Shown piece after piece: positions 20,627 through 61,194 of a stretch of 61,194 nucleotides of DNA. The notes under the pieces are model-generated. The model was not told the DNA's origin. It was given only the letters and a program-made list of their open reading frames with translations, and did no database searches. The position numbers and the translations under genes were made by a program. Source of the DNA: a virus. Taxonomy: Duplodnaviria > Caudoviricetes. Location of the stretch: IMG/VR virus record IMGVR_UViG_3300047388_000109, positions 1 to 61,194 of that record, one strand, 5' to 3'. Position 1 is the stretch's first letter; the number at the start of each line of letters is the position of its first letter.

Positions 20627-21181
20627 ATGGCTGAGACGATTGACGTTACCCCTCAAGCCCCAGCGCTGAGCATAGAGCACGAGAAGGTTCTACACCAGTA
20701 TCTGATCAACGGCGGCAATGCCGCGCAAGCCTACGCCTCTGTCTACCCGGCTGCCAATGAGGGTAGCGCCAAGCGCGCGGCCAGTAGACTTCTGTCCACC
20801 CCACAGGCTAGACAATGGTTGGACAAAGCGCGCGCTGACGTGATGGCCCGCAACGGCATCACCTTGGACGCTCTGGTCAATGTCCTGAAGATTCAAGCGC
20901 TTACGCCGATCTCAGAGGTGCTGGGCGATCCCCGCGACATCGAGGGCGACAAGGTGCTCGCAGTAGAGTCGTACCGGGCTGCCACCGCCAAGACGGCCGA
21001 GGTGACCAAGATCGCCGACCGCCGTGGCGCTGTGGTCGAGCTGCTGGATCGATTCTTCCCTGACGTGGGCAAGCCCCAGCCGAGCACTACGCCCGGCGGC
21101 GCGGTGACCAACGTCCAGATCAACGCTGAGAACATCATGCTGGACATCCGTGCCCTATTCGCCAAACATCGCCCGGGGTGA
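20627..21181 (+). CDS. terS: terminase small subunit
   Basis: YLINGGNAAQAY...AASRLLS HTH; upstream of terL. Confidence 0.85.
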   Translation: MAETIDVTPQAPALSIEHEKVLHQYLINGGNAAQAYASVYPAANEGSAKRAASRLLSTPQARQWLDKARADVMARNGITLDALVNVLKIQALTPISEVLGDPRDIEGDKVLAVESYRAATAKTAEVTKIADRRGAVVELLDRFFPDVGKPQPSTTPGGAVTNVQINAENIMLDIRALFAKHRPG

Positions 21182-22784
21182 CCTGCCAGCCGACCTGCGC
21201 AACGAGCTGCAAATCTGTCCCTTCGAACTGCTTCCCGACCTGTGGGAAATCATGCTCCGCAACGGGGTCACCAAGGCTGCGCTGGGACGCGCGGACCGCT
21301 ACTACCTGCTGACCCAGCTGCTGCACCGCAAGGACGCGATTCATCCGTGGCTGTACGACCGTTGCCGAGAGGTGGAGGCCAGCCCAGACGGTCACCTCGA
21401 CCTGTGGGCCCGGGAGCACTACAAGTCGACCATCATCACCTTCGCGGGCATCATCCAAGAGGTGGTGAACAACCCCGAAATCACGGTGTGCATCTTCAGC
21501 CACACGCGCCCCGTGGCGAACAAGTTCCTGAACCACATCAAGAGGGAGCTGCAATTCAATGCCGACCTACAGACCGCATATCCCGACGTGCTCTGGGAGA
21601 AGGCGCACCGAGACGCGCCCCTGTGGAGTCTTGAGAAGGGGATCACGGTCAAGCGTACGACCAACCCCCTCAACGCCACCATCGAGGCGTCAGGACTGGT
21701 TGACTCGATGCCTACAGGTTCCCACTACCTCCTACGGGTTTACGATGACGTCGTAACGCTCAAGAGCGTCAGCACGCCCGAGCAGGTTGAGAAGACCACA
21801 GACGCCTACGCCCTGTCCGACAACCTCGGCGCGCGCGGCCCGGATGGCATGATGCGCGAGTGGATGATCGGCACCCGCTACTCGTTCGCGGACACGTACC
21901 AGACCATCATCGACAAGGCCACCCTGAAGGTGCGCCTGCACCCGGCCACCGATGACGGCACCCGCAACGGCAACCCAGTCTTCCTGACGCGCCAAGCGCT
22001 CGACGAGAAGCTGGACAAGCAGCCGTCCCATATCTTCGCCAGCCAGCAGCTCCAGAACCCGAGCGCCGGCAACGAGGCCATGTTCAAGCCTCAGTGGTTC
22101 CGCTTCTCAGACGTCCGCCCGGCCACCATGAACGTGTACATCACGGTCGACCCCGCCGGCAGCAAGAAGAAGGGCTCCGACAACACCGCGATGGCAGTGC
22201 AGGGCTACGATGCCGCGCGCGTTCACTGGTTCCTTGATGGGTACTGTCACAAGATGGGGTTGGCTGAGAGATGGCTAAGAATCAAAGAGCTGCGCAAGAA
22301 GTGGATGGAGATGCCCGGCGTGCAAAACGTCTTCGTCGGATACGAGAGCTACGGGATTCCCGACGCCTTGGATCACTTCGAGGAGCGCATGGAAATCGAG
22401 AAGATTTACTTCCCGATTACGGTGCTTCAATGGCCGAGGCAGGAGGCTGGCTCGAAGACGGACCGGATCGCCCGTCTGGAGCCCGACTTGCGGATGGGGC
22501 GGTTCATCATGTCCAAGCTGCTGAAGGAGGAGAGCCCCGCGCAGCAGGAGATGCGCGCGACGGGCCACGACTTCCGCATCTTCCAGCCCCAGAAGCGAAT
22601 CGACCACAACGGCAAGATGTACGACCTGAACCGGACCCTGATCAAGGAAATGACCTTCTTCCCATTCGCCCAGCATGACGACCTGCTGGACGCTGTGTCC
22701 CGCTTCTATGACATGGACCCAAGACCTCCGGTGATAATAGACGAACGAGCGACAGAACCAGAGGCGTTCGGCGACGGAGCATAA
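21150..22784 (+). CDS. terL: terminase large subunit
   Basis: AREHYKST Walker A variant, VYDD Walker B, IGTRY, TVDPA, HDDLLDA. Confidence 0.92.
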   Translation: MPYSPNIARGDLPADLRNELQICPFELLPDLWEIMLRNGVTKAALGRADRYYLLTQLLHRKDAIHPWLYDRCREVEASPDGHLDLWAREHYKSTIITFAGIIQEVVNNPEITVCIFSHTRPVANKFLNHIKRELQFNADLQTAYPDVLWEKAHRDAPLWSLEKGITVKRTTNPLNATIEASGLVDSMPTGSHYLLRVYDDVVTLKSVSTPEQVEKTTDAYALSDNLGARGPDGMMREWMIGTRYSFADTYQTIIDKATLKVRLHPATDDGTRNGNPVFLTRQALDEKLDKQPSHIFASQQLQNPSAGNEAMFKPQWFRFSDVRPATMNVYITVDPAGSKKKGSDNTAMAVQGYDAARVHWFLDGYCHKMGLAERWLRIKELRKKWMEMPGVQNVFVGYESYGIPDALDHFEERMEIEKIYFPITVLQWPRQEAGSKTDRIARLEPDLRMGRFIMSKLLKEESPAQQEMRATGHDFRIFQPQKRIDHNGKMYDLNRTLIKEMTFFPFAQHDDLLDAVSRFYDMDPRPPVIIDERATEPEAFGDGA

Positions 22785-30992: not shown

Positions 30993-33605
30993 ATGAGTTC
31001 ATCCCCAATCAATGGGTCCAGTTCCGACTGGCTCCAGATCACTCAGAGCGCCTTCAAGGACGGCCGCACGTATTTTGACGGCGGCGTCCGGCGGGACATC
31101 GAGCGGGACGTGCGCCAGTTCCAAGGGCTGCACCCGACCGATTCCAAGTACCTGTCCGACGCCTACAAGGCGCGGTCCCGGTTCTTCCGCCCGAAGACTC
31201 GCTCCACGATCCGCCGCAACGAGGCGGTCGCGGCAGCCGCGCTCTTCAGCAACACCGACGTGGTCGAGGTGGGTGCGTGGGATGACTCCGACAAGACACA
31301 GCAGGCAGCCGCATCGCTCCAGAAGGAGCTGCTGAACCTGCGCCTGAAGCACAGCATTCCGTGGTTCCACGTCGCCATCGGCGGATACCAGTCGGCACAG
31401 GCCGAAGGTCTCGTCTGCGCGCACGTGTTCTGGAAGACCGACAAGAAGCGGGACATCGACCAGCCGATGGTCGACCTCGTGCCCATCGAGAACATGGTCT
31501 TCTCGCCAGCCTCGTCGTGGTTCGACGTGGTCAACAGCTCGCCGTACCTGATCCGCATGATCCCGATGTTCGTCAAGGACGTTCAGGCGCGGATGAAGTA
31601 CACTGGCCCGACGGCGACCAAGAAGTGGAACCCATTGCCGGAGGCAACGATCCTTCAGGCGGTGCAGGCGTACAGCGACTCGATCACGCTGGCGCGCGAC
31701 AACAATCGGCCGGACGCCAAGACCACGGCGACCAGCCTGAGCCCGTACCAAGTGGTGTGGGTGTACGAGACCATCGCCGACATCGACGGCGAGGACTACA
31801 TCTGGCACTCGCTTGGTGAGACCGCGCTGCTCTCCAATGGCATCCCGTTGTCGAAGGTGTACTGGCACGGCAAGCGCCCGTACGTCATCGGCTACGCGGT
31901 AATCGAGACACACAAGATTTACCCGCCGGGCGTGTCGCGCCTGACGCGTGAGCTGCAAGGCGAGCTGAACGAAAACGCGAACCAGCGCTCCGACAACGTC
32001 AAGTTCGCGATGAACAAGCGGTACTTCGGCAAGCGCGGCGCGCAGCTGGACATCCGCTCGCTCGTGCGCAACGTGCCGTCGTCCGTGACGCTGATGAACG
32101 ACCCGGAGAAGGACGTCCACGTCGTTGAGACCAAGGACGTCACTCAGTCGGCGTTCGAGGAGCAGGACCGCCTCAACATAGACTTCGACGAAATCGCCGG
32201 CAGCAACAGCAAGTCCGCGCGGGGCGACCCGGACAACCTCGCCAACAAGGTGGGCGGTGCCGAGATGCTGTCGGAGGACGCCAACCAGATCGAGGGCTAC
32301 CAGCTCCGCACGTACGTCGAGACGTTCATCGAGCCCGTGCTCGTGCAGCTCATGCTCTGCGAGCAGCACTACGAGACCGACGAGTCGATCCTCGCCCTGT
32401 GCGGCAAGAAGGCCCAGCTGCAAGAGGACCACGGCGTCAACGAGATTGACGACAACCTGATGATGCAGGAGCTGACCCTGACGGTCCACGTCGGGATCGG
32501 GTCGACCAGCCCGCGCAAGCAGCTGGACAACCTGCTGTTCGCCCTGTCGAAGATTGTGGAGCTATTGTCGACTCCGGTTCTGTCACAATATGGGCTGGAC
32601 GTCGAGGAGCTGATCAACGAAATCTTCTCGCGCATCGGGTACCGCACGGCCGACCGCTTCTTCAAGTGGGACGACCAAGACCCGCAGATCAAGGCGCTCA
32701 ACGCTCAGGTTCAGGACCTGACGACCGCGCTGAAGAACAAGCAAGACCCGCCCGAAATCGTCGCGGCTAAGGTGCTGTTGCTCCAATCACAGGTCAAGAA
32801 AACCCTTGCGGACACATTCAATGTCAACGTCGAAGGTCTCTTTGGTTCGATGCAGGCCGCAGAAGTGGTTGCGGCCGTGCCGGCTGTGGCTCCTGTTGCG
32901 GACACCATCGCCAAGGCAGCTGGGTACGAGCCGCCTGTCCCAGAGGGTCAAGACCCGGGCATCCAACCTGCGGGCGCGGCACCCGCCGCTCCTGCGGGAC
33001 CGCCTGATGCGGGTCCTGCGCCGCCGCCAGTGGTGGGCCAACCTCCAGCGGGCCCAGCGGTTCCCCCAATGGGCACACCGGTGGCAGCGCCGGCTGGCCC
33101 GGCTGGCCCGGCCCCCGGCCTTTCGGTTGACCCCAAGGGCATCACCAACAAGCGGACCGGGATCAACTTCGTCCCCGGCACCTCACCGACCGCCGGACCA
33201 GCTGGCGTAAAGCCTGACGGCCTGCCGCAGGGCGTCAACAAGAACACGTCGCCGCAGCACACGGCCGTCGCCGGCAAGTCTTCGTTCGGCAAGCCGCCGA
33301 TGCCGAAGATGGCGAAGACAGGTCACCCTGACGTCGGGACGCACTCCGGCATCGAGGGCGGACAGACCAGCGCGCACCCAACGCGGCCACTTGCTGGCGG
33401 CATGCCGATGACTCCGGGCATGGAGCCAGCTGATCCTGAAGTCGACGCTCAAGCGCAGCACGAGCGCGACAAGGAAGCGCAGTCGCACAAGGTCAAGACA
33501 GAGACCGACGCGAAGGCGAAGCTGATCGACAAGCAGGCCGCCGCCGACATCCGTGTCGCGAAGGCCGCGCCGAAGCCGCCGAGACCAGCTTCAAAAGGAA
33601 AGTGA
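30993..33605 (+). CDS. portal protein (P22-like) with a long Pro/Gly/Ala-rich C-terminal extension
   Basis: SRFFRPKTR, RPYVIG, LQGELN...QRSDN motifs; position before scaffold and capsid. Confidence 0.85.
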   Translation: MSSSPINGSSSDWLQITQSAFKDGRTYFDGGVRRDIERDVRQFQGLHPTDSKYLSDAYKARSRFFRPKTRSTIRRNEAVAAAALFSNTDVVEVGAWDDSDKTQQAAASLQKELLNLRLKHSIPWFHVAIGGYQSAQAEGLVCAHVFWKTDKKRDIDQPMVDLVPIENMVFSPASSWFDVVNSSPYLIRMIPMFVKDVQARMKYTGPTATKKWNPLPEATILQAVQAYSDSITLARDNNRPDAKTTATSLSPYQVVWVYETIADIDGEDYIWHSLGETALLSNGIPLSKVYWHGKRPYVIGYAVIETHKIYPPGVSRLTRELQGELNENANQRSDNVKFAMNKRYFGKRGAQLDIRSLVRNVPSSVTLMNDPEKDVHVVETKDVTQSAFEEQDRLNIDFDEIAGSNSKSARGDPDNLANKVGGAEMLSEDANQIEGYQLRTYVETFIEPVLVQLMLCEQHYETDESILALCGKKAQLQEDHGVNEIDDNLMMQELTLTVHVGIGSTSPRKQLDNLLFALSKIVELLSTPVLSQYGLDVEELINEIFSRIGYRTADRFFKWDDQDPQIKALNAQVQDLTTALKNKQDPPEIVAAKVLLLQSQVKKTLADTFNVNVEGLFGSMQAAEVVAAVPAVAPVADTIAKAAGYEPPVPEGQDPGIQPAGAAPAAPAGPPDAGPAPPPVVGQPPAGPAVPPMGTPVAAPAGPAGPAPGLSVDPKGITNKRTGINFVPGTSPTAGPAGVKPDGLPQGVNKNTSPQHTAVAGKSSFGKPPMPKMAKTGHPDVGTHSGIEGGQTSAHPTRPLAGGMPMTPGMEPADPEVDAQAQHERDKEAQSHKVKTETDAKAKLIDKQAAADIRVAKAAPKPPRPASKGK

Positions 33606-53484: not shown

Positions 53485-54785
53485 TGGCCTACGACGAAGA
53501 CGCGTCCTACCTTGGCAGCAGCCAAGGCACACCAAAGAACTACGGCCCAAGCAACATCGACATGAAGGGCTACACGCGCCTGTCGGGTGCCGAGTCTGAC
53601 CCTGCCTACCCTGCGTACAAGGCTTCGATTGCGCCGCCACCTGAGGCTGCTGCCCCAGCGCCAGCTCCTGTCGCCTCGTATCGCGCTGCTATGGACCCAG
53701 ACAATCCGGGTGGCGGTCAGCCGGTGGACCAGCCACAGAGCCGTGGTGTGCCGTCGTGGTGGGACAAGCCTGTGACAGACACGATGCGTGACATCTCAAG
53801 TCACCAGTGGTTCGGTGGTCCGACACAGAATGCCGTGAGCCAACTCGGCGTCAACATCAGCGGGCCGCGCACCGGCGAGGACCGTTCTGCCGGCGCTGGC
53901 TACAACGACACCCAGTCAGTGACCGTGCCAGCTGGCGGTAGAGTGAAGCCGGCGATGACGTTCCCAACGGACCCCGACGCCAACCTGCCAACCGCTCCTG
54001 TGCAACCGTACGGGCAGGTGGTGCAGGCGGCCAACCAAGCGATGGCGAACAACTACAGCGACCGTCTTGCGGCTGAAGACGCGCGCCGGCCGAACTCGCA
54101 AGAGCTGGAGTCCGCCAAGAATGACGCGCGTATCGCACGTTTCCGCGCCACTGACGGTGCCGACATGATCCTCGGCAGCAACCGCTTGTATGGTGCGCAG
54201 CGAGCTGCCATCGTACAGAACGCGGTCGACGCTACAGCCAACGCAACACGCCTCGACAACTTGGCGCGCGGCGCATCTCAGGTGACGCCACCGAATCTCG
54301 TGCAAGGCGCGGTCGCTCAGACCGAGGCCGATCAGAAGGCTCGAAGCGGTTCGTTCGACCAACAGAAGGGGAGCGTCGCGGTTGCTGGCGGGAAGCAGGC
54401 GCTGCAAAAGGGCGCACAGGAACTTACTGCCAGCGGGCTCCAGCTGCACACCGCGCAACACCTCGCCGATCTTCAGAAGCGTGCGCTCTCTGGGGACACG
54501 AAGGCCAACGACATGCTCGCGCTGTACCAGAAGGCGCAGTCTGGCAAGGGCGGACCGATCACCGAGGAAGACAAACTCAAGCTGTACGACGACATGGTCA
54601 GTCGCGCCGTTGCGATGGGCGGACCGGAAGCGTACAAGTCGCTGCCTGACTTCCAGACGCTGTCGGCGCACATGGACGGACGCGCCACGCCGCCGCCGGC
54701 CGATTGGATGGCGCGAGCCAAGGCCGCGAACCCGGGAATGTCCGATGAAGAATTGACCGCGAATTACGCCAAGAAAGCACGCTGA
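53484..54785 (+). CDS. putative internal virion/ejection protein
   Basis: TAATG and TGATG coupling; Ala/Gln-rich; precedes the giant ORF. Confidence 0.7.
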   Translation: MAYDEDASYLGSSQGTPKNYGPSNIDMKGYTRLSGAESDPAYPAYKASIAPPPEAAAPAPAPVASYRAAMDPDNPGGGQPVDQPQSRGVPSWWDKPVTDTMRDISSHQWFGGPTQNAVSQLGVNISGPRTGEDRSAGAGYNDTQSVTVPAGGRVKPAMTFPTDPDANLPTAPVQPYGQVVQAANQAMANNYSDRLAAEDARRPNSQELESAKNDARIARFRATDGADMILGSNRLYGAQRAAIVQNAVDATANATRLDNLARGASQVTPPNLVQGAVAQTEADQKARSGSFDQQKGSVAVAGGKQALQKGAQELTASGLQLHTAQHLADLQKRALSGDTKANDMLALYQKAQSGKGGPITEEDKLKLYDDMVSRAVAMGGPEAYKSLPDFQTLSAHMDGRATPPPADWMARAKAANPGMSDEELTANYAKKAR

Positions 54786-57700
54786 TGCCTTTTGTTGATC
54801 CCGACAGCCTGCCTCAGGCAGGTGGGAAGTTTGTCGACCCCGATGACATCAGAAGCGCCTCTGGCGAGATTGGTGCAGCTGCCAAGCGCGGCCTATACCA
54901 AGGCGTTACCCAGATTGGTGGCGCGCTTCAGACGCCAGCCGAACGGCTGGGCATGGAGCCCGGTATCGTCTCGCGCGCAGGAAAGGCGGTCGAGGAGTAC
55001 GGCAAGGCCGGCGCGGAGCGCAACGCTCCGCAGGAGACCCTGCACGGACCGGTCACGAACTTCGCCTCTCAGGCAGCCGAAGGGCTGACCTCGTTCGCTC
55101 CAACTCTGGCCGCTCAGGCCGGGGTCGGTGCGGCCGTGGGGTCGGTCGCCGGCCCAGTAGGGACCGTTGTGGGCGGGGCGCTGGGAGCTGGCGGCTTCAC
55201 CGCCGGGCAGGTCTGGCACGAAGAGTACCAGAAGGCGCTCGCCGCCGATAAGTCGCCGGACGCGGCGCGCGACCACGCCGACAAGTCTGCCGAGCTGCAA
55301 GGCGGCCTGATGGCCGGGGCCGGCGGCGTCGCCGGTGGCGTTGCCAAGGGAGCCGGGATCGTCGGCAAGGCGCTTGGATACGGTGCCAAAGACGCGGCCG
55401 AGGCCGGGACCAAGGCCATCGGCAAGAAGTTCGGACCGGAGTTCGCCAAGGGAGCGGCCGAGACGACCGCCGTCAACACAGGCGCGACCGTCGGCGGCGC
55501 GGCCGGACAGGCGGCCATCGACTCCGGCGACAATCTGAACACCGAGAGCCCGGGAGATGCGGCGCTCCACGCCGTCATGCCGGCCCTCGGGGCGTCCGTC
55601 GGATTCCTGCCGCTGGCGGCTCTGGGAGCCCACACAAACGTCTCTCACGCCAAGATGGTAGCTTCGGTGCTCGCCAACCCGAACGCCGCCCCAAAGGCCC
55701 GCGCAGGGGCCGTCAAGCAGGTGTTCGACGCCATGCAGAAGGCCAACCCGGAGCAGGCCAACACATGGGCCCTGAATGCCGGGGAAGCCCTGCACGCCCG
55801 CGCGCCTATCGGGGTCGACTCCAGCTGGACCGAAGGTCTCCACCCAAGCGTCTTCCCTGAGCTGGCCGAACCAGCCAAGGAACCTCTCGCCCTGCCGGCC
55901 CCCGGTCAGGTCGCGATTCCGGCCGACCAGCGCGACTTCGGTCCGTTCGAGCAGTCCAACGAGGCCGATCAGGCTGCCATCGAGCGCGACGCCGCGCGCT
56001 CCAAGTACGAGGCAGAGCAGGCCACCCTTCGCGGCGACCCGCTGACGGCCGCTGCCTTCGCTGGCCGCGCCAGCGGTGCCGTCGACGCCAAGGCCGCAGA
56101 GCGCGCCGCCGAGATTCCGGCCGCCGAGGTCGAGGAGCAGAAGCCGACAGGCGACGCCGGGACCGACCAGTCCAACATGAACATCCGCTCCGCGCTGGGC
56201 AACCAGCCGCAGCTCTCGCTCGCCGACGCGCAAGCGAAGATCGCCGCCATCAACGGCAGCGGTGAAAGCCCGAACAACTACTCTGTTGTTCCGCACCCGA
56301 AGGGCGGCTACGGCATCGTACCCGACCACTTCATCACCCCACAAGTCAAAGAACTGTACGCGGGCCTACAGAGCCGTGGTACACCAGAGCGCGCGCCGAA
56401 CCTGACTCCGTTCGATCTCGAACGCGCGCAGGCTCACGCCGAGGACCTGACGTCGCAGTCCGGCGTCGAGCACGAGGTCGTGCCGCACCCTTACGCCCGG
56501 GACAAGTTCCTTGTTCAGGAAAAGGATGCGTTCACGTCACGTGAACAACCGAGAGAGGTCCTACAAGAGCAAGGCGCAGGAGGCGTACTTCAACGCGAAC
56601 CGGGCGAAGCTGGAGTCAGAGGGGGTGAACGTGGACGAGTGGAACCGGTCGTCCAAGGGGAAGAAGCTGCCCGCCAAGGTGAAGCAGCCCGTGTCGAAGA
56701 AGGTCCTGCAACGGGGGTACAGCAAGACGTAGCACGCCACGGCGTTAAGCTGCCTGAGGTCCCGGCCAAGACCAACATGGCAAGCGACGGGTACATCGGC
56801 ATCACCAAGCCGGAAGATGCGCGCGCGGTGTCCAGCCTGATCGACGCGTCGGTTGCGGCCGGCCACTCGCCAGAGCTGTTCCGTGGCGCTGGCATCATCA
56901 AGAACCAGAAGAACGACCCGTACTCAGCGCCGATGGCGGCGTTCGCGCACAACAAACTCATCTCGATCCACGAGAGCGTGCTCGGAGACGATGCGGCGCA
57001 GCGACCGCACCAGTTGGCGCACGAGGGTGGTCACCTGATTGACGCCAACCCGGCGACCGGAGGCATGCACTCCAACGAGCACCCGGCGTTCCGCATCAAG
57101 ACCAACGCTGACGGCTCTCGTGAGGCAGAGGGTGGTATTATGAAGGCGGCTGTTGCCGCGTTCCAGAACACGAACTCTCTCACAGGCAACTCCCTCTCCT
57201 ACCCGCTGCGCGACTTCAACCGCAAGGACTTCAAGAGACAGGGGTACGACTCCGCTCACCAGATGTCGCAGGTTCTGGAGAACGAGGTGTTCGCCCAGCT
57301 CAGCCGCATGTACGGGGAGAACCCGACGGCGATGATGTACGAGCACCCAGAAGCATACGCACTATTTAAGGAGATGCACGATGGAACGAAGAAATCCTCA
57401 GGAATCGCAGGACTTGAGCGCTCGCTACGGGGAGCGCTTCAACGCCGCGATCAGACCGGACGTGTACGACAAGGTGAGCCCGCAGGAGATGGACGCGCGG
57501 CAGAAGCAGGCGCTGGAGACCGGGGTGCCGATAACGGAGTGGCACGGGTATCCAACGAGTCTCGCAAACCTCTGGCCGTCGATGAAGGCGAACATGGCGG
57601 CACCGCTGACCGAGGCGGCGCAGGAAAGCCAGCAACCCGCGAAGACTTCAAGCCCGGCCGCGTAGGCGATCTTCTCAACAAGAAGGACTGGGCTGTCCTC

Positions 57701-60700
57701 AGCGCGGAGAACCCGGACGCCAAGCCGGCCGCGCCCGCAGCGAACAAGGCTGCTACCGCGCGCCTCGAAGCTGACCTGAAGCGGCTTGGCGTAGACTACC
57801 AACCGGTCAGAGGCAAGTACGGTGGGCCCGAGGAGAACTCGTTCGCCGTAACCGGCATCACGCCTGAGCAAGCGCGCACGCTGCGCGACCTGTACGGACA
57901 GGATTCGATCCTGACCAACAAGGGCTTCGAGCACAAGGACGGCTCTATCACGCCGGCGAAGTCTATCGCCGCCAAGGCCCCTGACGAAGCAGACTACTAC
58001 ACGCAGATGCCGGACGGTACCAAGTGGGCCGCCGACATGGACTGGGACGCGCGCACAGCTCCGACGCGTCCGCTCGCCGTGCGCGATGGCACAGTCAAGC
58101 GCGGCGCAGATAGCGCCATCGCCATCCGAGAGGGCGCGGAGATTCGCGGTCTGCCTCGCTACGCCGGCCTGCCGGACATCGCGCGCGCGCTCAACAACCT
58201 CGCGCCGAAGCGCAGCTACGACAAGGTGGCCGACATCAAGTCGGCGACCAAACAGCTGTTCAGCGAGATCGCCTACCAGCTCAAGCAAGCGAAGAGCGGG
58301 CTCGGCTGGTACGCCGGCGATGTCCAGAAGGCGTGGAGATGGGCTGCGCAAGAACACCCTGAGCTGGCGCACGATCCGATCAAGCGGCAGCTGGTGTCGA
58401 TCATCACCGGACTCCACTCGCCCAGCATCAAGGCTCGCAAGAACTTCACGTACGGGCTGATCCAGTACGAGCACTACAAAGAGAACGGACAGTTCTCGCC
58501 GATCATCGACCCGACGACCGGCCAGCGCTGGAGCGGCAAGCCTGCGCACGAGCAGGCGATTACGCACGTCAACCAGATGCTGGCGGACACCGCCCGCTGG
58601 GATGGCGACCCTGAGCACGGTGTTGTGCAGTGGCTTCTCACCGAGCACCCGAAGTCTGTGCTCGCCGCAGAGCGTGCGCGCTATGGCGTCTGGGCGCGCG
58701 AACAGAAGGGTGCCGAGTCGTCAGACCCCGGAGCGTGGCTGGACAGCGTTCCTCACACGGCAGACCTCAGCGACAAGGAACTTGGCATCAACGCCAACAA
58801 GTCGCCGGGCGACGTCGGATTCAAGAGCCCGTCGCTCAAGGTAGGCGAGGACAAGGAACTCTACCTCGGCACTGAGATGTTTGGTCCGAAGGTCGGGCCT
58901 TTCATCGGCAACCTGAACGGCATGAACACGCACATCACGGTCGACGTGTGGGCGACGCGCACGCTGCGCAGACTGTTCGGTACGCTGCCAACCAAGGTCA
59001 GCGAAGACGGCGGCATCGAGGGTGAAGGTCCAACGCCACAAGAACGCAACATCGTCACGATGATGCTGCGTCAAGCTGCGCACGATCCTGAGCTACAGAA
59101 GCTGGGCATCAAGAACGGACCCGATGCGCAAGGCGTGACGTGGTTCTTCGAGCAGCAACTTTATGATACAATAACGAAGGGAACCGAGTCAGGGTTCTTC
59201 TCAGACGGAGCACGCGACTATGTTGAATCAAAAGGCCATATCGTTGATGAGCAGGGTGCTGGCGCTCCAACGCTCACAGACGCCAGCGTCCATGCGCGGC
59301 CAAGCGAAGACGAAGCCAACGCAGCAGCCCAGCGCATCGCCGCAGAGCGTCCGCTCTACACCGACAAGCCCCGCAAGACTGACGTCTTCTTCTCCGCGCT
59401 CTCCCGCGCCGTAGACGAGAAGGCTCCGTTCGCCAAGGACGGCACCGCCAACGCGCAGATGCTGCGCAACTGGCTCGACGCCCGCACCAAGGACGGCACG
59501 ATCAAGCGCGACGAGCTACAGTGGACCGGGCTCGACGACTACCTGAAACTGCGCGACGGCAAGATCACCCGCGACGAGGTCAACCAGTTCCTCGACCATA
59601 ACGGCGTGAAGGTCACGGAGACGATGTTGAACGATAGCAGCGGCCGTGAAGCCGCCGAACGCGCGCGTCGGCTACACAACGTATACGCTGAAGCCGGGAA
59701 TCGTGTTGCCCATCTGAAGCAAATGATTGCTCCCGGCTCGCCTTACGCCAAGTCGATGCGCGACGAAGCAACCCAGAAGTTGCCGGAGGCGGAATCGGCT
59801 TTGGTTGAGGCCCGCGCCAATCTGGACAAGTCTGCGGCAGAAGCCAAGACGACCATCGACTCCAACAATCCAACTCGTTACGCCGACCGCGTCCTCCCCG
59901 GCGGCAAGAACTACCGCGAGTTGCTGCTGACGCTGCCGGGTGGCTCTGAGGCTACCAAGAAATTCGAGGTCTACGACCAAGGCACAGGAGAGGTTGTAGG
60001 CACATACACCTCTGAAGCAGCGGCCGAGGCTCACGCCAATCGAGTCGGCAACTACGCGGTGGACTCCGTTCGCGTCAATGGTGCAGGCTTCCAATCGTCG
60101 CACTTCACCCAACCCAACATCCTCGCCCACATCCGCTTCAACGAGCGCACCGACGCCAACGGCAAGAAGGTTCTCTTCATCGAGGAGATTCAATCCGACT
60201 GGGCGCAGAAGGGGCGGAAGGAAGGGTTTGACAGCCCGGCCAAAACGATCGAGCAACAGGCGGAGCTTCGGAAACAGCGCGATGTGCTGGTCGAGAAGCT
60301 CGACGATCTGAAGGAAGGAACGCCGCAGCACGGCGAGGTCATTGCGCACATCCGACAGCTCAACGAGGAAATCCAGAACACGCAAGCGTACAAGAAAGGC
60401 GTCCCGAACGCCCCCTTCGTTGGCAAGACCGAAGCATGGGTCGCGCTCGCGCTCAAGCGCATGATCCGCTACGCCGCAGACAACGGCTTCGACCGCGTCG
60501 CGTGGACGACCGGCGAGCAGCAGGCGTCGCGGGGCGACCTGAGCAAGCAAGTAGAGGCAGTTCGTGCTACCAAGGCCAAAGACGGAACGTATGATCTTGC
60601 TGTAGCACAGAGTGGATCGAGGGGCCGCTTTGAGGTGTTGGCTGACGGCATAAAAGAGTCTGACATAGAGACTCACGTTGGCAAAGACTTGGCGAAAAAA

Positions 60701-61194
60701 ATAGTAGAGCGCGGCGGCGGAACATACAAGGGCGTCGACCTCGCCGTCGGCGGCGAAGGCATGAAGTCCTTCTACGACAAGATCGTCCCCAACGTCGCCA
60801 ACGACGTGCTGAAGAAGCTGGGTGGCGGACGGGTGGAAGATGTGGCGGTTGATACCGGTGATCGTGTGATCGACGCGCGGCCCGGAAAGAATAGTGACGA
60901 GGTCGTAGAGCATTCACGTCAACAAGGCTTCGACATCACGCCTGCCATGAAGGACAAGGTCGTCGGCGGTCAGCCTCTGTTCGTGCGCGAAGACGGCACC
61001 AAGGCCACCGACAAGAGCGTGCTTCCTCCGATCACCGGCGGCAAGGCTGCCGACTCCGAGGCTCGCTTCGACAAGAACGGTGAGGTGCTGCACGAAGAGG
61101 GCACCGAGCCGCACGTGTTTGACCCGAAGCACCTTGAGCCTTGGATGCGCGGTCTGACGCACGATCAGATCGAAACCCTGCGCAAGGCCGGCGG
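54785..61194 (+). CDS. giant polyvalent internal virion protein (partial, more than 2100 aa)
   Basis: ATG 54785 (MPFVDPD); no stop in the segments I translated and no track ORF in this frame up to the window edge; HEGGH, SAENP, VDVW and EEIQSDW motifs. Confidence 0.85.
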   Translation, partial: MPFVDPDSLPQAGGKFVDPDDIRSASGEIGAAAKRGLYQGVTQIGGALQTPAERLGMEPGIVSRAGKAVEEYGKAGAERNAPQETLHGPVTNFASQAAEGLTSFAPTLAAQAGVGAAVGSVAGPVGTVVGGALGAGGFTAGQVWHEEYQKALAADKSPDAARDHADKSAELQGGLMAGAGGVAGGVAKGAGIVGKALGYGAKDAAEAGTKAIGKKFGPEFAKGAAETTAVNTGATVGGAAGQAAIDSGDNLNTESPGDAALHAVMPALGASVGFLPLAALGAHTNVSHAKMVASVLANPNAAPKARAGAVKQVFDAMQKANPEQANTWALNAGEALHARAPIGVDSSWTEGLHPSVFPELAEPAKEPLALPAPGQVAIPADQRDFGPFEQSNEADQAAIERDAARSKYEAEQATLRGDPLTAAAFAGRASGAVDAKAAERAAEIPAAEVEEQKPTGDAGTDQSNMNIRSALGNQPQLSLADAQAKIAAINGSGESPNNYSVVPHPKGGYGIVPDHFITPQVKELYAGLQSRGTPERAPNLTPFDLERAQAHAEDLTSQSGVEHEVVPHPYARDKFLVQEKDAFTSREQPREVLQEQGAGGVLQREPGEAGVRGGERGRVEPVVQGEEAARQGEAARVEEGPATGVQQDVARHGVKLPEVPAKTNMASDGYIGITKPEDARAVSSLIDASVAAGHSPELFRGAGIIKNQKNDPYSAPMAAFAHNKLISIHESVLGDDAAQRPHQLAHEGGHLIDANPATGGMHSNEHPAFRIKTNADGSREAEGGIMKAAVAAFQNTNSLTGNSLSYPLRDFNRKDFKRQGYDSAHQMSQVLENEVFAQLSRMYGENPTAMMYEHPEAYALFKEMHDGTKKSSGIAGLERSLRGALQRRDQTGRVRQGEPAGDGRAAEAGAGDRGADNGVARVSNESRKPLAVDEGEHGGTADRGGAGKPATREDFKPGRVGDLLNKKDWAVLSAENPDAKPAAPAANKAATARLEADLKRLGVDYQPVRGKYGGPEENSFAVTGITPEQARTLRDLYGQDSILTNKGFEHKDGSITPAKSIAAKAPDEADYYTQMPDGTKWAADMDWDARTAPTRPLAVRDGTVKRGADSAIAIREGAEIRGLPRYAGLPDIARALNNLAPKRSYDKVADIKSATKQLFSEIAYQLKQAKSGLGWYAGDVQKAWRWAAQEHPELAHDPIKRQLVSIITGLHSPSIKARKNFTYGLIQYEHYKENGQFSPIIDPTTGQRWSGKPAHEQAITHVNQMLADTARWDGDPEHGVVQWLLTEHPKSVLAAERARYGVWAREQKGAESSDPGAWLDSVPHTADLSDKELGINANKSPGDVGFKSPSLKVGEDKELYLGTEMFGPKVGPFIGNLNGMNTHITVDVWATRTLRRLFGTLPTKVSEDGGIEGEGPTPQERNIVTMMLRQAAHDPELQKLGIKNGPDAQGVTWFFEQQLYDTITKGTESGFFSDGARDYVESKGHIVDEQGAGAPTLTDASVHARPSEDEANAAAQRIAAERPLYTDKPRKTDVFFSALSRAVDEKAPFAKDGTANAQMLRNWLDARTKDGTIKRDELQWTGLDDYLKLRDGKITRDEVNQFLDHNGVKVTETMLNDSSGREAAERARRLHNVYAEAGNRVAHLKQMIAPGSPYAKSMRDEATQKLPEAESALVEARANLDKSAAEAKTTIDSNNPTRYADRVLPGGKNYRELLLTLPGGSEATKKFEVYDQGTGEVVGTYTSEAAAEAHANRVGNYAVDSVRVNGAGFQSSHFTQPNILAHIRFNERTDANGKKVLFIEEIQSDWAQKGRKEGFDSPAKTIEQQAELRKQRDVLVEKLDDLKEGTPQHGEVIAHIRQLNEEIQNTQAYKKGVPNAPFVGKTEAWVALALKRMIRYAADNGFDRVAWTTGEQQASRGDLSKQVEAVRATKAKDGTYDLAVAQSGSRGRFEVLADGIKESDIETHVGKDLAKKIVERGGGTYKGVDLAVGGEGMKSFYDKIVPNVANDVLKKLGGGRVEDVAVDTGDRVIDARPGKNSDEVVEHSRQQGFDITPAMKDKVVGGQPLFVREDGTKATDKSVLPPITGGKAADSEARFDKNGEVLHEEGTEPHVFDPKHLEPWMRGLTHDQIETLRKAG
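56526..56732 (+). CDS. nested +1-frame small protein (YKSKAQ...KLPAKVK)
   Basis: GC3 bias switches to the +1 frame; AGGA upstream of ATG. Confidence 0.55.
   Translation: MRSRHVNNRERSYKSKAQEAYFNANRAKLESEGVNVDEWNRSSKGKKLPAKVKQPVSKKVLQRGYSKT
57381..57665 (+). CDS. nested +1-frame small protein
   Basis: TAAGGAG-N7-ATG; GC3 bias switches to the +1 frame. Confidence 0.6.
   Translation: MERRNPQESQDLSARYGERFNAAIRPDVYDKVSPQEMDARQKQALETGVPITEWHGYPTSLANLWPSMKANMAAPLTEAAQESQQPAKTSSPAA

Follow-up and report, generated by a model that had tools for sequence, protein, structure and literature searches.

A family of small phage proteins encoded out of frame within giant open reading frames, and a soil phage copy lacking its internal start codon

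Results

The nested open reading frame and its protein family

We analysed a stretch of 61,194 nucleotides (nt) of a virus of the Caudoviricetes, the viral record IMGVR_UViG_3300047388_000109 with an estimated completeness of 94% (hereafter the window), and within it a small open reading frame (ORF) located in the +1 frame of a giant one. The small ORF belongs to a family of small phage proteins that we name S here. The following features define the locus; GC3 denotes the G+C content at third codon positions.

54785..61192, plus strand: giant ORF (main frame), 2136 amino acids (aa) visible, its 3' end open beyond the contig end
56511..56732, plus strand: +1-frame ORF P0001, 73 aa, from the first TTG after a stop to a TAG
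56555..56750, plus strand: main-frame linker over S (..EVLQEQGAGGVLQREPGEAGVRGGERGRVEPVVQGEEAARQGEAARVEEG..), its letters dictated by the S codons
56556..56729, plus strand: body of the S gene, family positions 1-58 from alignments, with positions 3-58 intact and positions 1-2 reading AGG TCC (R S), not ATG CCN
56730..56732, plus strand: TAG stop of the S frame, directly after which GC3 reverts to the main frame

The translation of ORF 56511..56732 contains YKSKAQEAYFNANRAKLESEGVNVDEWNRSSKGKKLPAKVK exactly and is offset by +1 to the giant ORF 54785..61192, the main frame of which stays open across it as Gly/Glu/Arg-rich sequence (..VLQEQGAGGVLQREPGEAGVRGGERGRVEPVVQGEEAARQGEAARVEEG..). At 56556-56729 the +1 frame had a GC3 of 0.97 and the main frame one of 0.40, compared with 0.76 in the main frame of the giant ORF overall. 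The switch set in near 56480-56540, ended near 56720-56780 and was sharp on both sides. A sequence-only reading of the window had described a nested +1 peptide with G/C-ending codons under an open main-frame linker, and the ORF, its translation and the GC3 values bear this out.

The consensus of S is MPYKSKAQExYFNANRAKLExQGVNVDEWNxASKGKKLP followed by a basic tail. A word-indexed search with the nested peptide yielded 218 proteins, and all 218 of these word-sharing candidates scored E values of at most 10. The best 120 of the 218 had E values from 4e-27 to 2e-11, identities of 52-98% and lengths of 44-107 aa, a resemblance far beyond chance. P0001 was retrieved in the window copy's own genome (E 6e-45), and the closest homolog, P0003, was 98% identical to the body of the window S. 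The S proteins that we read started with MP(Y/F)KS.AQ, continued with YFNANR..LE.QGV(N/D)VDEWN..SKGKKLP and ended in a variable basic tail. The same reading had likened the peptide to stand-alone phage proteins; its homologs do begin with MP(Y/F)KS.AQ and carry KGKKLP.(R/K)V. The core of S comprises about 45 aa, and the window copy is significantly similar over this core and thus a member of the family. All nine invariant residues (S5, F12, N13, G23, V26, E28, W29, N30, and G35) are present in it. The pair M1-P2, conserved in at least 90% of members, is absent from the window copy, the gene body of which is still that of a member. Its tail, KVKQPVSKKVLQRGYSKT, ends at the TAG at 56730-56732; P0003 has an identical tail and P0004 a similar one.

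Searching 1.84 billion cluster representatives with a profile gave 734 S clusters at E ≤ 1e-3 and 342 at E ≤ 1e-10. Searches of Pfam, PHROGs, and NCBIfam gave nothing meaningful for the window peptide or for 24 members of S, tblastn of three members against 50,697 GenBank phage records gave no match, and neither did blastn of the region. Among 185,579 species genomes, S was confirmed in 15 contigs only, all from metagenome-assembled genomes. In a language-model atlas S fell among unnamed viral clusters; the nearest named cluster was DUF3008 at a score of 0.84, which is a lead only. A literature search, with supplementary files outside its scope, found no paper dealing with the S family, DUF3008 or genes nested within giant ORFs of phages, and the term 'DUF3008' itself returned 0 papers.

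Arrangements of S across phages

We fetched 80 viral, 35 metagenomic, and 15 genomic loci. Some of them are one contig from two collections, and counts of stops and codons refer to distinct core DNAs. Of the 115 fetched loci numbered L002-L116, 15 gave no match to the motif regular expression and were left out of the frame-opening counts (L002, L007, L024, L033, L076, L092, L097, L099, L107, and L111-L116).

Most loci carried a free-standing S, as the sequence-only reading had expected for relatives of the peptide, and the gene order was terminase-S-portal in four of five free-standing loci that were checked. In L038, L040, L047, L064, and L079, free S lies directly 3' of a giant ORF of at least 1995 aa, with its ATG 6-9 nt past the stop. 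In-frame fusions were also common: 66 of the best 150 profile matches were proteins of 200-1022 aa, and S was N-terminal in 65 of these 66. The sole long match with a C-terminal S was P0197 (586 aa), in which S follows a 537-aa protein in frame. Some of the fusions bear Gly-zipper-like segments and a HEL(G/T)H motif, and 12 of the 66 have some HExxH.

In the remaining arrangement S is nested out of frame in a giant ORF on the same strand. This was found in L005/L117, L011, L013, L014, L034, L068/L126, L077, L082, L128, the window, and the L039 group (L039, L042, L043, L044, L048, L049, and L070). Together these amount to 13 distinct sequences, which represent about 10 lineages and genome GC contents of 33-69%. 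The giants range from 1044 to more than 3100 aa, and S begins anywhere from residue 137 to beyond residue 1998. The offset was +1 in every case. With the exception of close relatives, the giants share no detectable similarity beyond the overlap, and the out-of-frame arrangement recurs in about 10 lineages with unrelated giant genes. Across 101 motif-bearing loci, 16 giant-ORF loci had the +1-offset frame open over S and for at least 108 codons to either side of it; this frame was open by chance in four short cases and closed in the other 81. L128 is a further nested lineage beyond those 101 loci. The large terminase gene follows the giant ORF in L005, L011, and L039.

Constraint on the two frames

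In free-standing copies the frame corresponding to that of the giants had stops in 62 of 66 distinct sequences. In genomes with a GC content below 0.45, free copies contained a mean of 6.9 stops in this frame and none of 13 was open; the nine nested copies contained none. Over S residues 3-41 in these AT-rich phages, nested copies used 0.7 (0-2) T-ending codons out of 39 and free copies 10.5 (8-15) out of 39, and GC3 was 0.73 in nested and 0.41 in free copies. Nested S is thus recoded at its wobble positions such that the giant frame is free of stops; from the sequence itself, a T at such a position before a codon starting with AA, AG or GA would create a stop in the giant frame.

Substitutions between related nested copies were counted in both frames:

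Window versus L082: S frame 11 synonymous and 9 non-synonymous; giant frame 3 and 17
L039 versus L043: S frame 5 synonymous and 3 non-synonymous; giant frame 1 and 7
L043 versus L048: S frame 2 synonymous and 0 non-synonymous; giant frame 0 and 2

Between the window and L082, the nearest relative with context, S was 85% identical over 40 columns, whereas the giant protein was 42% identical upstream and 26% downstream. Mean pairwise identity among nested copies was 0.70 for S and 0.47 for the giant frame. The latter value (0.467) lies slightly above a null of synonymously shuffled sequences (0.436), an excess explicable by relatedness. Judged from these comparisons, nested S is under strong purifying selection and selection keeps both frames open. 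The giant frame over S shows no constraint beyond staying open and behaves as a passenger linker. The same DNA would then encode S together with a flexible linker in the giant protein, and this dual coding is inherited and maintained by selection. The sequence-only reading had allowed that the nested gene might be a fossil. As a general account this fails, since the codon recoding shows that nesting is actively maintained.

Initiation of nested S

Several nested copies have a Shine-Dalgarno (SD) sequence at a suitable spacing before their ATG: GAGGAGG in L013, AAGGAGGGGG in L077, AAGGAGG in L034, GGAG followed by 6 nt in L082, and AGGAG followed by 8 nt in L128. The AT-rich nested lineages have no SD sequence before the ATG, which would fit hosts that do not use SD sites. 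In nine nested sequences (L005, L039, L043, L048, L011, L013, L014, L068, and L077) the S frame has a stop 1-11 codons 5' of the ATG, and entry by frameshifting from the giant frame is therefore unavailable in those lineages. These features suggest that in the relatives S would be translated from its own SD sequence and ATG inside the giant ORF, by internal initiation.

An open path into the S frame exists only in the window, L082, L034, and L128. In the window, 35 open codons precede the S body in its own frame, and a programmed +1 ribosomal frameshift there would add S to the N-terminal 590 aa of the giant, yielding a truncated A-S fusion; a natural in-frame A-S fusion, P0197, does exist. 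However, no slippery site was evident on reading 56450-56560, although no dedicated search for a site or stimulator was made, and the stop 1-11 codons 5' of the ATG is found in the nine nested sequences and also in the allele from soil run X3 described below. We consider frameshifting extremely improbable.

We give as slight a chance to the idea that the S stretch was never a separate gene and was once an in-frame domain of the giant, shifted by two compensating insertions or deletions. Such an origin would be in keeping with the in-frame occurrence of S at the N-terminus of large proteins, and once at the C-terminus, and with a second local switch of the GC3 frame at 57365-57634. Yet in the relatives the gene is complete from SD sequence and ATG to stop and is preceded, at a distance of 1-11 codons, by S-frame stops, and the same phase recurs in unrelated giants together with codon recoding.

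A 9-nt deletion at the start of the window copy

The window region 55900-57300 was compared with contigs of four soil sequencing runs, X1-X4, of which X2 and X4 had no coverage of the deletion point. Record 15 of the independent soil run X3 (847 nt) spans 56412-57249 and differs from the window by 12 substitutions and one insertion or deletion over 838 nt. It contains nine extra bases, GAACGATGC, behind 56559, and an A>G change at 56578. In the X3 allele GAGAGAGG is followed by six bases and then ATG CCC TAC AAG, with an S-frame TGA two codons 5' of this ATG. Its product is P0003, beginning with MPYKSKAR; the contig of P0003 was not recovered in the metagenome scan, and its allele was found in run X3 instead. 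L082 has 9 nt more in its upstream region and reads GGAG-N6-ATG CCG TAC at the corresponding site. Since L082 and all other members carry the longer form, the deletion in the window is derived. The features at this site are:

56517..56520, plus strand: SD-like tetramer AGGA, 5 nt before ATG 56526, weaker than and unlike the usual GGAG
56526..56732, plus strand: candidate replacement ORF, 68 aa (MRSRHVNNRER-S-YKSKAQ...), the first 11 codons of which are a separate TGA-ended mini-ORF in X3
56551..56558, plus strand: GAGAGAGG, remnant SD sequence of the lost S start, located 6 nt before the ATG in the X3 allele
56559..56560, plus strand: junction of the 9-nt deletion relative to the X3 allele, at which the S-frame TGA, the ATG of S, and the first base of its Pro codon are lost

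The window copy therefore lacks a family-type start, its first two codons having changed from ATG CCN to AGG TCC, which corrects the sequence-only reading. That reading had named ATG 56526 as the place from which the gene might still be translated, but this is not its normal start; the SD-ATG unit was removed by the deletion. The deletion cuts three codons (N-D-A) from the giant frame and leaves it unbroken. It thus spares the giant protein, and it fuses the 11-codon mini-ORF starting at ATG 56526 to the S body.

Two outcomes for the window copy appear roughly balanced: expression of an extended S, or very recent silencing. The window S may be a fresh pseudogene in which initiation has been abolished and only the linker of the giant is functional, and this stands just short of an even chance. 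The deletion took the ATG and the first Pro base of a family in which M1 and P2 are at least 90% conserved, ATG 56526 lacks the GGAG of this phage (its usual signal is GGAG, 6-9 nt, and ATG), and a deletion length that is a multiple of three would mean that only the giant frame needed sparing. Silencing is harder to reconcile with an S body that is intact and matches the consensus at every invariant site. The undamaged body is uninformative, however, because the alleles are so close (12 substitutions and one insertion or deletion over 838 nt) that decay is not yet expected. The deletion also removed the TGA that blocked ATG 56526, which has AGGA 5 nt upstream, and altered N-termini are tolerated elsewhere in the family (MYKS in L015, MSPYKS in L071, and GTG or TTG starts).

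The other outcome, to which we assign somewhat less than an even chance, is that ATG 56526 still serves to express S, as a 68-aa protein extended by 10 residues at its N-terminus. There is an in-frame ATG with AGGA 5 nt upstream and a frame open to the S stop, and the deletion joins the mini-ORF to S exactly in frame. On the other side, the SD sequence is atypical for the phage, the MP(Y/F)KS N-terminus is highly conserved, and a search of public runs listed no RNA run for the stretch. The soil alleles with and without the internal start constitute a natural knock-out pair for asking whether S is needed.

Predicted structure and possible role of S

An AlphaFold2 model of S built from 111 sequences consists of three short helices (residues 6-14, 16-21, and 26-33) and a disordered tail, with a confidence measure (pLDDT, predicted local distance difference test) of 74. 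Searches of the Protein Data Bank (PDB) and BFVD with this model gave no match at E ≤ 0.001. Because S occurs near terminase, portal, and giant genes and is often the N-terminal domain of large Gly-zipper-rich proteins, it could be a packaging- or virion-associated adaptor module acting with large internal virion proteins, a proposal that we regard as doubtful. As a conserved N-terminal module on very variable large proteins, and with its basic tail, S may serve to adapt or target DNA or large internal virion proteins.

The giant ORF and its setting

The window encodes a large terminase (21150-22784), a portal protein (30993-33605), tail fibres, and head-closure and structural proteins. The giant ORF lies at the end of the structural module; the genes just 5' of it match head closure Hc3 and virion structural PHROGs, and the terminase and portal genes are farther upstream. 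Within the giant ORF we found a match to phrog_7348 and, in a Pfam scan, DUF3293 (E 1.7e-10) at 57602-59002, about residues 940-1406. An overlapping match to S-adenosylmethionine (SAM) lyase was sub-threshold (20.8 bits against a cut-off of 28). The DUF3293/SAM-lyase-like region may be an anti-restriction cargo domain.

No relatives of the flanks of the window giant were recovered in viral contigs, and in tblastn of the giant against the 80 viral loci L013 was the sole match, confined to the overlap. Relatives of the window giant with an S domain in the main frame were looked for and none was found. The HEGGH region of the window was considered as the HEL(G/T)H domain of the S fusions and dropped, the profile giving no match in the window giant at E ≤ 10 and no more than marginal ones in L039 and L034.

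A second switch of the GC3 frame was seen in the giant ORF at 57365-57665, with values of 0.78-0.88 for the +1 frame against 0.42-0.48 for the main one. The switch coincides with a +1 ORF at 57381-57665 (94 aa, P0123), where the main frame is again rich in Gly, Arg, and Glu. P0123 is probably the other nested gene alluded to in the title of the sequence-only reading, which called the S copy a second one. It had no homologs among near-length or longer proteins, no match in the language-model atlas, and no Pfam match. A 151-nt contig of run X3 omits 222 nt at window 56227-56450 and has eight other letters between the two sides; its shorter side comprises only 22 letters, and a source in another organism is possible.

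Side observations were also made on the domains that accompany S elsewhere. A metallopeptidase-like HEL(G/T)H region is present in the fusions P0135, P0151, P0170, P0186, P0188, P0211, P0226, P0228, P0236, and P0241, and its profile also matches separate ORFs just downstream of S-fusion genes in L061 (7828-8406) and L067 (7374-9587), with E values of 2e-16 and 5e-11. The long fusions P0198 and P0251 end in DUF6321 (E 3e-18 and 3e-21); the other eight that were scanned had no Pfam domain. A 600-aa module (51% identity) lies downstream of nested S in the L014 giant (residues 821-1423) and upstream of free S in L038/L064 (residues 432-1090). Around S, modules are shuffled.

Discussion

We consider it very probable, from the sequence comparisons taken jointly, that the nested gene is a member of S, that its dual coding is under selection, and that the window copy carries a 9-nt deletion. 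A more general proposal is tentative, with well under an even chance of being right: S would be a frame-transparent gene, repeatedly carried in unrelated giant virion or polyvalent genes, in the same phase, and recoded for read-through. If so, S could arrive either by read-through fusion of neighbours or by insertion in the alternate frame. It would provide a natural mechanism that stitches separate genes into giant ORFs while a partner protein continues to be encoded and expressed along with them, and giant genes would have no common sequence for recombination other than the S segment.

S is the older of the two frames, and the giant linker is overprinted on it, because S has the wider distribution and genome-like codon usage. 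The copies located 6-9 nt after giant stops (L038, L040, L047, L064, and L079) and the C-terminal fusion P0197 look like intermediates. With P0197, S is seen merged with an upstream gene in a third phase. The sequence-only reading had proposed that a neighbouring gene was engulfed by the expanding giant ORF. What stands of this is that S is older and that it abuts or fuses with large genes; the arrangement is not private to this phage, and insertion is also compatible with it. The suggestion that polyvalent proteins gain their linkers in this manner is upheld for this one linker only.

Several observations weigh against the interpretation of S as a selected, expressed, and repeatedly nested gene. 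The window copy has lost the family start, and its replacement ATG is preceded by no more than an AGGA-type SD sequence, so that this copy may be non-functional. Public runs listed no RNA run for the stretch, and no cultured phages with S were found. The structural model is of moderate confidence and has no structural neighbours, so that the proposed function derives from genomic context. A tree of S (40 columns) needs eight changes between nested and free states, of which well-supported branches force at least two only, and it does not appear to separate one origin from many. A search for relatives of the L039 giant without S gave only seven known contigs, all with S, and with no empty-site giant engulfment and insertion are not distinguishable. 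The +1 frame is also the more stop-prone one (open in 4 of 66 free copies, against 10 of 66 for the other frame), and the exclusive +1 phase may mean that an S segment which had already been recoded was inherited or transferred, instead of being fused anew each time. Finally, in X1, the likely source run of the window, Logan contigs break at 56560 and 56551 and none bridges the junction by 31 nt. The loss of the start could in principle be an assembly artefact, the real genome having the 9 nt, particularly as the S core is almost exactly common to other phages in the same soils (records 17 and 22), which tangles assembly graphs. Both X1 contigs nevertheless cross the junction in the deleted form, by 1 nt and 9 nt, and the window, which is a separate assembly, agrees with them. 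We consider an artefact very unlikely.

As separate observations, contigs broke at the S start (window 56551-56563) in both X1 and X2, and records 17 and 22, from other organisms, contain 34-46 nt of the S core (56610-56665) with 4-5 mismatches. The conserved S core may tangle metagenome assembly graphs. Gene callers that bar nested genes will overlook this family, which numbers hundreds of clusters and gave no match in Pfam, PHROGs, NCBIfam, or 50,697 phage genomes.

The giant ORF and its nested gene can be compared with several known systems. Polyvalent proteins, known from phages and conjugative elements (Iyer et al. 2017), combine many recognisable conflict or effector domains in one chain, typically along with a MuF-type domain that targets them to the head. 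Pfam scans of the window giant, a protein cut off by the contig end, detected no MuF, and only DUF3293 and the SAM-lyase match at 20.8 bits were present. The window giant resembles polyvalent proteins as described in the accessible part of PMC5512222 in being a giant multi-domain phage ORF, and DUF3293 with the sub-threshold SAM lyase would fit anti-restriction cargo. That part of the article uses neither 'overlapping' nor 'frameshift', and it applies 'nested' to a hairpin fold only. Viral overprinting, as far as the available portion of PMC8227390 describes it, likewise draws two proteins from one DNA, with an ancestral genome-like frame and a novel disordered frame. In the classical case set out there a new small protein is born inside an old gene, whereas with S an old small gene has been covered and the novel product is the linker. 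The placing of a gene in another frame of a host gene so that both are readable is described in the accessible part of bioRxiv 10.1101/2024.11.07.622342 as an engineering method; the S arrangement is natural.

DUF3008 is similar to S in consisting of small, mostly viral or bacterial proteins, in line with the atlas score of 0.84. Its members have a similar MP.KSKAQ start and an LPE ending. Membership of S in DUF3008 was rejected, because the profile (PF11450, cut-off 24 bits) gave no match in the window at E ≤ 10 and matched none of 24 S members at E ≤ 1.

In phage lambda, Rz1 is encoded wholly in the +1 frame of the larger same-strand gene Rz and has its own internal start; both products are made and the partners cooperate. 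The S ORF similarly lies wholly inside a larger same-strand ORF, at +1, with both frames open, and S would be translated in a comparable way. It is by analogy with the joint action of Rz and Rz1 that S might be a working partner of the giant protein. Unlike Rz1, a lipoprotein that has a signal sequence and a lipobox, the window copy and the 23 S members that we read have no Cys and no signal peptide. The systems also differ in that the embedded S is older and widespread, that the enclosing frame is a featureless linker, and that the arrangement recurs in unrelated host genes. To our knowledge, phages have only a handful of genes embedded in another on the same strand, each confined to a single gene pair. 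In the case of S, a single conserved small gene occupies the same phase within about 10 giant-ORF lineages that are otherwise unrelated, which offers a clean natural system for how dual coding is maintained and suggests one concrete route by which giant phage ORFs gain linkers and fuse modules.

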